In this document: one piece after another, positions 41,126 to 43,822 of the stretch | Position numbering within the stretch: position 1 is the stretch's first letter | How the letters are laid out: the number at the start of each line of letters is the position of its first letter | DNA from: Verrucomicrobiota bacterium | Lineage (GTDB): Bacteria; Verrucomicrobiota; Kiritimatiellia; SS1-B-03-39; UBA6053 | Length of the DNA: 54,541 nucleotides | Assembly: GCA_046581765.1 (NCBI GenBank) | Contig: JAYGFS010000338.1 | Location: 1-54,541 of the forward strand | Direction of reading: 5' to 3' | Translations under genes and position numbers: made by a program | The notes under the pieces: model-generated | Databases searched by the model: none | Seen by the model: the letters and a program-made list of their open reading frames with translations, nothing else | Told to the model about the DNA's origin: nothing

Positions 41126-42434
41126 CGTAGGTCCCTCCCAAGCCGCGGAAGATCTGCATATCCGACCAGTCCCAGAAGCGGTCAATATGATCGTTCACAT
41201 CATTGGGTTGACCGTTCCAGAGATGGACATCGTGATCGCTCACCCCTCGATATGTAACGAAGGCACTCCAGGCGATGCACAGTGCGGCGAAAACGGCGAT
41301 CGGCACCTTGCCTTGACGCGGCAGGGATTGCAGCACCCGGAAAAGGGGAATCGTGAGCAACAACCAAACCGGTATGTAGGTACAGAACAGGCGCGGACCG
41401 TAGGACCAGCCGCCCCACCACATGGGCCAGAGGGCGAGGAATATCCAGTGACCGATCAAGGCGATAGCGAGAAAGCGGTACAGCACCAGCGCATCGGACC
41501 GGTCGCGGAAGATATGGATCATCGACCAGAGACTGAACAGGCAAACCGGCATGTAAACAAACAATCCGCGGCTCGGGCTGACCAGCAGGCCAAGGACCCC
41601 GGAATCGAAATCACGCCCGATGACCCCGGTCGGCCCGGGGTACGGCTGCACCCATGCACCGTAGCTCGCCTTGCAGATGACCACGTAGACGAGTGCCACC
41701 ACGGCACCCGAGATCGCGTACACCATGAAGGCTTTGCGACGATTGCATAACACGTGGAGGGTCAGCAGCCCGATCAGCACGATGACATCCGGCCGCATCG
41801 CAGCCGCGATGGCCAGCGGAATACCCGAGAGTCCGGCCCACTTGTCCGGCAAAGCAGTCAGGGCCCCAAGTCCGAGCAACACAAAGAAGGCTCCGGGATT
41901 GTGCGACCAGTAGCCCCCCGCATGCTGACACGCGTTCAGGCTGGCAAAGGCCAGGATCAAGGCAAGCATGAGGGCGATGCCGATGGAACCGGACAGGCGA
42001 TACGCGACAAGGAACAACAAGCCCACCGACGCGGCCGCGTAGATCTTGGCAATCAAGAGTGTCATGTGGATGGAAACCCAGATCGAATTGGGCTGCTTGC
42101 GGAACACCGGCTTGAGCGCCGCCACGAAGGGCAGCGCGGCAATGGAGGTAAACACCGGGTAGTTGTTGAGTACACGGCCATCCGCATCACGCGTCACGCG
42201 ATAGTCTGCTTCCCCGTAATACGTGCGGAGGTAGCTCAGGTCTTCAGCCAACTCGGTGATGGGGGCCTCGAACTCGTTCAAGTCAAAATTGCCTTCATCC
42301 AGGAGACTCATCGCGCTGGGCACGTACCAGAAGTTGTCGTTCTGGTTGAGTACCCGGGTGACATGATCCAGCGGCCAGTAGGCCACCAGGACCACCCCGC
42401 TCAGCACAAGTGCGATAAACAATGGGTGCTTCAT
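41118..42434 (-). CDS. uncharacterised polytopic membrane protein, paralog A of a tandem pair (GT-C-like)
   Basis: 438 aa. The ATG at 42432..42434 forms an ATGA overlap with the UGM stop. Motifs are NFWYVPSAMSLLDEGNFDLNEF, AKIYAAASV, GGYWSHNPGAFF, SPSRGLFVYMPV, WPMWWGGWSYGPRLF and FWDWSDMQIFRGL. Confidence 0.8.
   Translation of the reverse strand: MKHPLFIALVLSGVVLVAYWPLDHVTRVLNQNDNFWYVPSAMSLLDEGNFDLNEFEAPITELAEDLSYLRTYYGEADYRVTRDADGRVLNNYPVFTSIAALPFVAALKPVFRKQPNSIWVSIHMTLLIAKIYAAASVGLLFLVAYRLSGSIGIALMLALILAFASLNACQHAGGYWSHNPGAFFVLLGLGALTALPDKWAGLSGIPLAIAAAMRPDVIVLIGLLTLHVLCNRRKAFMVYAISGAVVALVYVVICKASYGAWVQPYPGPTGVIGRDFDSGVLGLLVSPSRGLFVYMPVCLFSLWSMIHIFRDRSDALVLYRFLAIALIGHWIFLALWPMWWGGWSYGPRLFCTYIPVWLLLTIPLFRVLQSLPRQGKVPIAVFAALCIAWSAFVTYRGVSDHDVHLWNGQPNDVNDHIDRFWDWSDMQIFRGLGGTYGA
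41152..41176. repeat. 25-nt direct repeat, copy 2 (ATCTGCATATCCGACCAGTCCCAGA)
   Basis: 24/25 identical to 39855..39879. Confidence 0.85.
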
Positions 42435-43822
42435 GGATTTCGCCGTCCGTTCACCAGGGCGGGTTGATGCAGGGTCGGTTCAGCCTCAGGACCGGCTTTC
42501 GCCCGCAGGCGGTCGACGCATTCGTACCCGAGGGCAAAGGAATGATCCTGGTTGGCTACCTCGTATTTCCAGCTGCCGAAGCGGCCACGGCTGTAGATAC
42601 CCTGCGCTTCAAAGGCGCGCAGCAGGGGATCCACGATCGCATCCCGACCGAGGAAGGGCGTGGGATAGCCCTGTTCGATCCGCCGGTACTCCCGGGAGAG
42701 GATCTTGACCCCGGACGGCAGCAGGCCGTCCTCCTTCAAGGCGCGAACGGTATCCTCCACCAGGGTCTCGTGGTTGACGGGCTTCTTCACGCTCTCCGAG
42801 GTCTCGGTCATCAGCGACCACTGCTCGCCGGGCCGGGACACGTTGTTCGGGCTGTAGTTACTGAACACGGTCACCCGATAATAGGGGCTGTTCGATTCCG
42901 GGAAATACATCCAGCACTTGGTATCGAGATGTTCGGGTGTTTGCCCTTCCATGCCGATGCCGACGATATGGGTCGAGGAATAGACCAGGTCCCCGGCCGT
43001 GCGGGCCTCCACCACCCCCGGGGCCAACTCGATGAGGTGGTTCAGCGGCATGGTCGAGATCAGGTGGGTGTAGCTGTAGTTATTCCCCTGCGCATCGGTG
43101 ACCGTCTTTTTCACGGGATCGATCGCGGTGACCGCCGTGTTCAGCCGGATCTGTTCACCCGGAAGCATGGCCCCTATTTTCTGCCAAACCGCGCCGGTGC
43201 CGCCTTCTCGTGGAAACCGAAATACGGCAGTGGGCCCCCAGGAAACGGCATCTTCACCCTTGCAGATGGACTTTAGAACCCCCTCCAGCGCAGGTACGGA
43301 AACGCGTTCGCCGATCCAGGCGAAATCCAGCTCCTCCGGCGGAAAAGCCCAGACCTTGAAATTGTAGGGTTCCATGAACAACTCCGTGATCCCCGCGCCG
43401 AAAGTCGCCCGCATCCAATCGCCGAAATGTGCGGGCGATGCAGCCGTGGCCGTGGCGGCTGCCTGCATGAGTCCCTGTACGCCTTTCCAGCGATCCTCCG
43501 GGTCGAGTCGATGCAGATTGTTCTGGAAAGGATACGGGATAAATCGGTTGCGCATCCACACCCAGCTTTCACGCTGGTGGGAAATCCAGCCGTCCGGGCC
43601 GAGCGCGGCATCCATGTAGCGGTCAAAGGTTTCGTAATGTGAGAACTGGACATGTCCACCGTGATCCCAGAGGAATCCCTGCTCGTCTACCCAGGAGGAC
43701 GCGAGGCCGCCGAAGTGCCCCGCCGCCTCCAGCAGCAGCCAGTCCTCGCTGTTTTCGTGTAAACGGGTTGCTGCGCCAAGACCTGTTGGCCCGGCACCTA
43801 TGATGATCGTTTCTCTATGCAT
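42431..43822 (-). CDS. glf: UDP-galactopyranose mutase, long eukaryote-type form
   Basis: Start at the ATG 43820..43822 ([21 protein letters not shown]). The track start at 43876 is a TTG. The signature strings match my recollection of Aspergillus/Leishmania UGMs: [121 protein letters not shown]. Confidence 0.9.
   Translation of the reverse strand: [463 protein letters not shown]

Follow-up and report, generated by a model that had tools for sequence, protein, structure and literature searches.

A probable long-form UDP-galactopyranose mutase in a bacterial glycan cluster and the mainly bacterial distribution of its family

In this study, we analysed a 54,541-nt stretch of DNA from a Verrucomicrobiota bacterium (GenBank contig JAYGFS010000338.1). 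The whole stretch is called the window here, and coordinates given without a locus label (L001 and so on) are positions in it. A gene on its minus strand very probably (about 0.85) encodes a genuine long-form UDP-galactopyranose mutase (UGM; UDP, uridine diphosphate), and would thereby be a new bacterial member of a known family. The assignment draws on sequence homology, the modelled fold, conserved active-site residues, the distribution of the family and the gene context. The enzyme would supply galactofuranose (Galf) to a surface glycan that is built by a cluster of ~45 kb in this Kiritimatiellia-like bacterium of the Planctomycetes-Verrucomicrobia-Chlamydiae (PVC) group.

42431..43822, minus strand: probable long-form UGM (homology, active site and AlphaFold2 model)

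The gene encodes 463 amino acids, from an ATG at 43822 to a stop codon at 42431-42433; the mechanically called open reading frame (ORF) reaches further, to a TTG at 43876. The protein carries a Rossmann motif for flavin adenine dinucleotide (FAD), GAGPTG, at residues 9-14 and a histidine loop, G55-G56-H57. All nine peptide strings quoted in the original prediction, which had proposed a eukaryote-type UGM, occur in the translation and in the given order. In a phmmer search of the PDB the protein matched Trypanosoma cruzi UGM (TcUGM; 4dsg, E=3e-136, residues 5-461 on 12-471) and Aspergillus fumigatus UGM (AfUGM; 3uka/3ute, 1e-128) over its full length, with residues 4-462 covered by these enzymes together and identities of 47% and 45%, respectively. 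The best short bacterial UGM in the PDB, that of Deinococcus radiodurans (3hdq), was matched at E=5e-3 and in the N-terminal Rossmann part alone, and the NCBIfam model of the short Glf, TIGR00031, scored 20.4 bits (cutoff 303.75). The predicted unlikeness to the short bacterial enzyme is thus borne out.

The fold points in the same direction. An AlphaFold2 model of the protein, based on an alignment of 44 homologues, had a mean predicted local distance difference test (pLDDT) score of 90.5 and superposed on the AfUGM and TcUGM crystal structures with template-modelling (TM) scores of 0.93-0.96 and root-mean-square deviations of 1.7-2.9 Å over 468-490 aligned columns (TM 0.94-0.96 for AfUGM and 0.93-0.94 for TcUGM; 43-47% identity to UGMs). 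As modelled, it has the three-domain long-form fold with extra helices, second flap, seven-stranded sheet and C-terminal tail. For the active site, the AfUGM residue table (Table 2 of PMC3322874; van Straaten et al., 2012) was supplemented by the eukaryote-specific G61-G62-H63 loop and Gln107 (PMC3624792; Kizjakina et al., 2013) and mapped by HMMER alignment. At 26 of the 27 positions the window UGM is identical to AfUGM. Kept are R182, R327, Y317, Y419, R447, Y453 and E373 of AfUGM (R173, R316, Y306, Y386, R414, Y420 and E340 here), including the catalytic arginine R327 and the pyrophosphate-binding tyrosines, as well as F66, R91, Y104, Q107, N163, W315, N457 and Q458 (F60, R84, Y97, Q100, N154, W304, N424 and Q425). 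Where the two forms differ, the protein has the long-form state (F60, R84, Q100, N154, P197 for AfUGM P206, W304, Y306, N424 and Q425). The GGH of the histidine loop is present in 118 of the 120 top hits of the window UGM, and these active-site positions are mostly invariant in the 44-sequence alignment of bacterial and eukaryotic proteins. The original prediction therefore stands in its main point: the best sequence and structural matches are UGMs rather than amine oxidases or protoporphyrinogen oxidases (PPO), and the mutase residues, among them the catalytic arginines and tyrosines, are in place.

PPO is the next structural class to the model (TM ~0.7, 14-16% identity), which explains why annotation pipelines label long-form UGMs 'protoporphyrinogen oxidase'. 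That the protein really is a PPO or another redox flavoenzyme of the amine-oxidase family, as the NCBI/JGI annotation has it, is very improbable. This second-best structural match would fit such an enzyme, as would the names of cluster members and the Pfam result, in which the two generic domains Amino_oxidase and NAD_binding_8 were the only matches and GLF was absent. However, the PPO model of NCBIfam, TIGR00562, reached 18 bits (cutoff 97.85), identity to UGMs is 43-47%, the set of UGM substrate-binding and catalytic residues is complete, and the gene lies in a glycan cluster and not in a haem cluster. Matches to the NCBIfam 'PRK07208 hypothetical protein' models stayed under threshold. Our data thus support a long-form UGM that is neither a short Glf nor a protoporphyrinogen or amine oxidase.

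Some observations weigh against this assignment, among them the single active-site mismatch.

43229..43231 (differing base 43230), minus strand: codon ACT for Thr198, equivalent to Asn207 of AfUGM on the 200s flap; relatives have AAT

In AfUGM, Asn207 lies on the 200s flap within 3.5 Å of O4 of galactose and helps to close the site (PMC3322874). Asn occupies this position in 120/120 top hits of the window UGM, 119/119 hits of TcUGM, 40/40 labelled bacterial loci and 113 of the 115 family representatives in which the motif was found, so that Thr198 is set against ~390 homologues with Asn. Da Fonseca and colleagues reportedly found in 2014 that an N207A exchange lowers kcat/KM 200- to 1000-fold; the PDB entries 4u8l and 4u8o among our structural matches are N207A variant structures, showing that the variant was studied. 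The window copy might therefore have lost part of its activity, or the base might have been assembled wrongly. In addition, a full-text literature search found no enzymology for any bacterial long-form UGM, and no dedicated galactofuranosyltransferase could be named from the gene content of the window.

The Thr codon differs from the AAT of L001, a relative with 96% identity, by a single A-to-C change. In the 90% cluster of the window UGM, all 12 further full-length proteins have Asn, and P0527, which is 99.8% identical to the window UGM, differs at residue 198 only. Thr198 is private to this assembly and not a property of the lineage; it reflects either an error in base calling or a mutation of very recent origin. 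The near-invariance of Asn in all four homologue sets, its presence throughout the same cluster and the one-base nature of the change are what a crippled allele, or a sequencing or assembly error, would leave behind. We nevertheless regard this explanation as rather unlikely, since nothing else disturbs the reading frame, which is 99.8% identical to relatives, and since Thr keeps a hydrogen-bonding hydroxyl group that makes partial function plausible.

For the long-form UGM reading, the following reaction is predicted by homology. The enzyme would bind FAD and be activated by reduction, in long-form enzymes by reduced nicotinamide adenine dinucleotide phosphate (NADPH). N5 of the reduced flavin would then attack C1 of UDP-galactopyranose (UDP-Galp) and displace UDP, the flavin-iminium adduct would allow the sugar ring to open and to close again as a furanose, and UDP would re-attack to release UDP-Galf. 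Catalysis, activation by NADPH and the transferase that would use UDP-Galf all belong to this predicted part; the product might be used by a cytoplasmic family 4 or family 2 glycosyltransferase (GT4, GT2), or by translationally coupled GT-C enzymes via lipid-linked Galf. Upstream of the UGM lie the following genes.

43886..44839, minus strand: FkbM-family methyltransferase, immediately upstream of the UGM
44712..45668, minus strand: nucleotide-sugar epimerase of the short-chain dehydrogenase/reductase (SDR) type, GalE-like by similarity, under the equivalog cutoff
45644-46855, 46859-48073 and 48074-49510, minus strand: three GT4 glycosyltransferases of the same operon, candidate cytoplasmic transferases

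A GalE-like epimerase two genes upstream had been part of the original prediction. Its position is right, with the FkbM gene in between; its identity as GalE is less secure, as the score against the GalE equivalog TIGR01179 is below the cutoff (148.7 versus 262.3 bits) and the gene is missing from the syntenic locus L063, whose UGM is 70% identical. Among named families GalE scored highest, and the top PDB match was a UDP-glucose 4-epimerase (E=2e-45). We therefore call it an SDR epimerase that is GalE-like by similarity, and do not assign its specificity. The link between GalE and UGM is independently backed by natural fusions, because a GalE-type epimerase is fused to UGM in 4 of the 10 long family representatives, which supports a route from UDP-glucose via UDP-Galp to UDP-Galf. 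Other long representatives are fused to GT90/DUF3431 or DUF707: P0131 (975 aa) joins UGM, GT90 and DUF3431, and P0121 (1551 aa) combines two UGM-like stretches with DUF707. These large fusions may point to candidate Galf transferases.

The fusions also bear on the substrate. A long-form pyranose-furanose mutase might act on another nucleotide sugar, such as UDP-GalNAc, UDP-arabinopyranose or a 6-deoxy or amino hexose. The cluster holds a LegB-like dehydratase, a DegT aminotransferase and methyltransferases, which are suited to modified or amino sugars, the flap residue that contacts O4 of galactose is changed to Thr198, and PVC genomes contain divergent long-form paralogues with altered active sites. 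Yet all remaining residues in contact with galactose and UDP are identical to those of AfUGM, the Thr is confined to one assembly with Asn in a 99.8%-identical relative, and the GalE-UGM fusions in the family point to UDP-galactose. We consider a different substrate improbable and retain UDP-Galp as the likely one.

Reviews up to 2020 treat the long form as eukaryotic or eukaryote-specific (PMC3624792, PMC7662398). In a full-text literature search we found no account of bacterial long-form UGMs, although an earlier mention of bacterial homologues may exist. A search of 5.8 billion proteins with the window UGM returned >7,800 hits, and an exhaustive search of the 50% representatives gave 874 family clusters at 50% identity (E<=1e-30). 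The top named hits were proteins of Verrucomicrobia and Kiritimatiellia called 'FAD-dependent oxidoreductase' or 'protoporphyrinogen oxidase'. Six peptide patterns alone retrieved 62 species-level genomes from >15 phyla. The carriers found in this way include Kiritimatiellia, Verrucomicrobiota, Lentisphaerae, Planctomycetota, Bacteroidota, Bdellovibrionota and Myxococcota, Desulfuromonadales and Geobacterales with the cultured isolates Oryzomonas japonica and Geomonas limicola, and Acidobacteria, Gemmatimonadota, Rokubacteria, Methylomirabilota, Chloroflexia, Bacillota, Saccharibacteria and others. The long-form UGM family is mainly bacterial, and annotation pipelines mislabel its members as protoporphyrinogen oxidase.

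The nearest genomic relatives of the window UGM are encoded in a metagenome-assembled genome (MAG) of Kiritimatiellia (L001, 96% identity) and an Omnitrophota-labelled MAG (L002, 85%), and NCBI names in its 90% cluster include Omnitrophota and Verrucomicrobiales. With TcUGM as query, kinetoplastids, EukProt protists and Vitrella (54%) ranked first, followed by bacterial MAG proteins at 52-54% (Acidimicrobiales, Gemmatimonadota, Sumerlaeia); at 45-46%, the Aspergillus enzyme is less similar to TcUGM than these bacterial proteins are. A cluster look-up of the unlabelled representatives that stand near TcUGM and AfUGM in the tree showed mostly anonymous metagenome proteins. A phylogeny of the family had been called for in the original prediction; a neighbour-joining tree of named sequences, with 100 bootstrap replicates and without a reliable outgroup, places the window UGM in a PVC clade with 100% support; Desulfuromonadales (100) and Cytophagales (100) are equally coherent taxonomically. 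Eukaryotic UGMs form separate lineages (kinetoplastids 98, a fungal-type group 96, Vitrella with GILJ01 98) and were recovered as one clan in 0/100 replicates. The backbone has a support of 7-43%, at which the direction and number of inter-domain transfers cannot be stated from the tree.

Since the definition of the family goes back to eukaryotic enzymes and reviews call it eukaryote-specific (PMC3624792, PMC7662398), a recent horizontal transfer from a fungus or protist into this bacterium would be an obvious thought. It is hardly credible, because GC content is uniform across the window (~0.60) with no anomaly at the gene and because the PVC clade, which holds all of the closest relatives (60-96% identity), is coherent. 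Moreover, the gene sits within overlapping, translationally coupled bacterial genes, and its product is at most 49% identical to any eukaryotic protein, less than to proteins of Acidimicrobiales, Gemmatimonadota and Cytophagales (53-54%). As the 'eukaryotic' family is mainly bacterial, the UGM gene is very probably not a recent eukaryotic import but an old resident of bacterial genomes, and the data suggest that bacteria are the reservoir of the long form. The question of ancestry raised by the original prediction is thus a real one and points to a bacterial reservoir; its picture of an exotic eukaryotic gene, and the rarity that this implied, does not hold, as the diversity is mostly bacterial.

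In five PVC loci the canonical UGM is accompanied by a divergent long-form paralogue at a distance of 2-4 kb.

L007:14350-15657, divergent paralogue
L008:7597-8889, divergent paralogue
L009:9883-11256, minus strand, divergent paralogue
L010:14368-15747, minus strand, divergent paralogue
L016:13436-14863, divergent paralogue

These proteins keep the long scaffold and carry short-Glf-like changes of F66 to H, Q458 to M and G61-G62 to A-V/I (AfUGM numbering); in L007 and L008, N163 and N207 are also changed, to T and F, respectively. Such proteins might bridge the two UGM classes or might be mutases that act on a different sugar.

Downstream, the UGM is followed by genes for membrane glycosyltransferases.

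41118..42434, minus strand: GT-C-fold membrane glycosyltransferase A, 438 aa, ~9 transmembrane segments; its ATG overlaps the UGM stop codon (ATGA)
39836..41185, minus strand: paralogue B of protein A, 42% identical, with the same C-terminal WDWSDMQIFRGL
38211..39836, minus strand: PMT_2-family GT-C protein, 541 aa from an ATG at 39836; ATG and stop codon of paralogue B overlap (TAATG)

Paralogue B probably starts with a GTG (41125) and thus overlaps the last bases of gene A. The genes for UGM and the three GT-C proteins overlap in series and are translationally coupled, and the order of UGM and GT-C genes is conserved in L001, L002 and L063, i.e., down to 70% UGM identity. Protein A had no match in Pfam or in a PDB sequence search, and the fold search alone led to GT-C. 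Its AlphaFold2 model (pLDDT 93.5) found 24 GT-C enzymes among the first 28 Foldseek hits, the other four being chains of glycosylphosphatidylinositol (GPI)-transamidase entries. The enzymes matched were ALG12, ALG9, ALG3, STT3/PglB/AglB, DPY19, PimE, AftA, Emb, ArnT and PMT, with ALG12 as the best match (TM 0.52, probability 1.0); these are enzymes that use polyprenyl-phosphate-linked donors. Asp33 is invariant in 46 homologues and would lie in the first extracytoplasmic loop. As modelled, protein A is polytopic, has a GT-C fold and carries a conserved acidic residue, as expected of such an enzyme.

A candidate for the preceding step lies 11 kb downstream of the UGM in the same cluster, within a block (30887-38229) that resembles the Arn pathway and ends at the PMT_2 GT-C gene.

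30887..31846, minus strand: ArnC/GtrB-type polyprenyl-phosphate glycosyltransferase, GT2 domain with two C-terminal transmembrane helices, IGEYLARI
32526-34794: LuxC acyl-CoA reductase and LuxE acyl-protein synthetase, with an iron-containing alcohol dehydrogenase (Fe-ADH)-like gene also in the block
35879-37060, AMP-binding enzyme, and 37063-38229, DegT aminotransferase (plus strand)

The product of 30887-31846 matches ArnC (9hwj, E=4e-54) and GtrB (5ekp, 3.5e-37) over its full length, as a polyprenyl-phosphate glycosyltransferase should; as ArnC itself it was rejected (198 bits against a cutoff of 529). The Arn-like block may make a lipid-linked, N-acylated amino sugar.

Gene neighbourhoods suggest a route from UDP-Galf via undecaprenyl-phosphate-linked Galf (Und-P-Galf) to GT-C enzymes. 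An ArnC- or dolichol-phosphate-mannose-synthase-like GT2 would move Galf from UDP-Galf onto undecaprenyl phosphate, Und-P-Galf would then cross the membrane by flipping, and on the periplasmic side GT-C-fold transferases would use it to add Galf to surface glycans. It is tempting to speculate that long-form bacterial UGMs feed such a lipid-linked pathway, with the corollary that eukaryotic lineages obtained UGM from the bacterial reservoir, possibly more than once; we regard this proposal as possible but tentative. We know of no polyprenyl-phosphate-Galf donor that has been described, and a full-text literature search for one found nothing. Within the window, it speaks against the lipid-donor route that the ArnC-like gene adjoins the amino-sugar/acyl genes of the Arn-like block, which are possibly its true partner, and a cytoplasmic Galf transferase might just as well be encoded by one of the three upstream GT4 genes.

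In a tblastn search, the close relatives L001 and L002 were the only loci to share the neighbours specific to the window, and neighbours of long-form UGMs were therefore clustered de novo. Glycosyltransferases are the recurrent immediate neighbours, most commonly a GT2 of ~250 aa whose best PDB matches are ArnC and dolichol-phosphate-mannose synthase and which gives weak scores with the NCBIfam models of the polyprenyl-phosphate glycosyltransferases ArnC, AglJ, PgfS and PpgS. By tblastn, 19/62 loci from at least 8 phyla have such a GT2 directly upstream of the UGM, encoded on the same strand and at most 420 bp away; in 26 loci a GT2 of this kind occurs within 10 kb of the UGM, and in 20 of these it is adjacent. 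In 19 of 53 loci, proteins with at least 6 transmembrane segments are encoded at most 1.5 kb from the UGM. They include PMT_2/Agl23-like proteins (L023, L032, L042, L060), GT87 (L017), DUF2298/chlor_Arch_YYY proteins (L033, L058) and an LA_3751-like family; at least three are not GT-C, namely a Wzx-type flippase (L036) and acyltransferases (L018, L024). Apparent GT2-UGM fusions in the long ORFs of L004, L021, L029 and L030 were discarded: Pfam detects no GT2 domain in these over-extended high-GC ORFs, and the GT2 is a separate gene upstream of the UGM.

Two further neighbourhoods were observed. In nine loci of Verrucomicrobiota/Kiritimatiellia a conserved protein of ~336 aa (cluster c4, e.g., L005:11419-12429, minus strand) adjoins the long-form UGM, on the opposite strand in eight of them; it has no Pfam match and no transmembrane segments and is a candidate soluble Galf-related enzyme. 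In Geobacterales/Desulfuromonadales (L043-L049, L057) the UGM is directly followed by a GT9 of the heptosyltransferase family and often by an SDR epimerase, which suggests Galf in the lipopolysaccharide core or O-antigen of Geobacter relatives.

The window from ~10 kb to 54 kb is filled with glycan biosynthesis genes, nearly all on the minus strand. Besides the genes listed above, which include the LuxC/LuxE/AMP-binding block and the DegT aminotransferase, they encode a CBS-nucleotidyltransferase, the LegB-like 4,6-dehydratase, several GT2s in addition to the three GT4s, two FkbM methyltransferases, a sulfotransferase, an asparagine synthase, a DUF6044/YfhO protein and an LPG_synthase_TM protein. 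Membrane glycosylation components are the 712-aa DUF6044/YfhO-type protein (17407-19545, minus strand) and a block at 26365-28631 in which a GT2 (26365-27315) overlaps the LPG_synthase_TM gene (27312-28631), both on the minus strand. The sulfotransferase gene (19701-20570, minus strand) suggests that the glycan is sulfated; cultured Kiritimatiellia relatives have been described as producers of sulfated exopolymers (PMC7356697). Outside the cluster lie a 1195-aa FG-GAP/ASPIC-UnbV repeat protein (2929-6516, plus strand) and an esterase-like protein with AXE1 and glucuronyl esterase matches (505-2535, minus strand). An Rfam scan of the whole window returned no families.

UGM is a drug target that is pursued in fungi, kinetoplastids and nematodes. 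If most long-form diversity is bacterial, hundreds of tractable bacterial homologues become available for work on structure and mechanism. The origin of the family needs rethinking, because eukaryotes are not monophyletic within it. Thousands of bacterial and MAG annotations as 'protoporphyrinogen oxidase' or 'FAD-dependent oxidoreductase' are probably wrong, and Galf is therefore under-predicted in environmental bacteria, among them the PVC group, Bdellovibrionota, Cytophagales and Geobacterales. The conserved order of GT2, UGM and GT-C genes predicts a lipid-linked Galf donor, which, if true, would open a new branch of furanose glycobiology. We see the value of this analysis in the under-recognised, mis-annotated bacterial distribution, in the non-monophyly of eukaryotic UGMs and in the testable idea of a lipid-linked Galf donor.

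Among known systems, the window UGM is closest to T. cruzi UGM (4DSG/4DSH) and other kinetoplastid GLF proteins. It is collinear with the T. cruzi enzyme over 457 residues with small gaps at 47% identity, has the same GGH histidine loop, second mobile flap and C-terminal tail ending in ..VNG(R/T)R, and like the T. cruzi enzyme lacks the fungal hairpin insert; it differs in its location in a bacterial operon and in the exchange of the flap Asn for Thr in the window allele. With A. fumigatus UGM (3UTE/3UKA family) it has in common 26 of 27 active-site residues and the fold (TM 0.94-0.96), whereas ~16 residues of the Aspergillus 'insert 1' (hairpin 340-366) are missing and identity is 45%. The short Glf of Escherichia coli, Klebsiella pneumoniae, Mycobacterium tuberculosis and D. 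radiodurans presumably performs the same reaction with the same flavin chemistry and shares the Rossmann N-terminus, two catalytic arginines and pyrophosphate-binding tyrosines. However, it has H, H/N, T, Y, F, N, D and M at the positions of F60, R84, N154, P197, T198 (an Asn in relatives of the window UGM), Y306, N424 and Q425 and is devoid of the extra helices, flap 2 and the seventh strand, with similarity to the window UGM in the N-terminal part only. Finally, the proposed lipid-linked route recalls three-component systems in which a GT2 and a GT-C enzyme stand beside an enzyme for a special sugar: ArnC/ArnT, GtrA/GtrB/Gtr-type systems, mycobacterial decaprenyl-phosphate-arabinofuranose with Emb/Aft, and archaeal Agl22/Agl23. 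Here the sugar-forming enzyme would be UGM, and the ArnC-like gene of the window lies 11 kb from it instead of adjacent.

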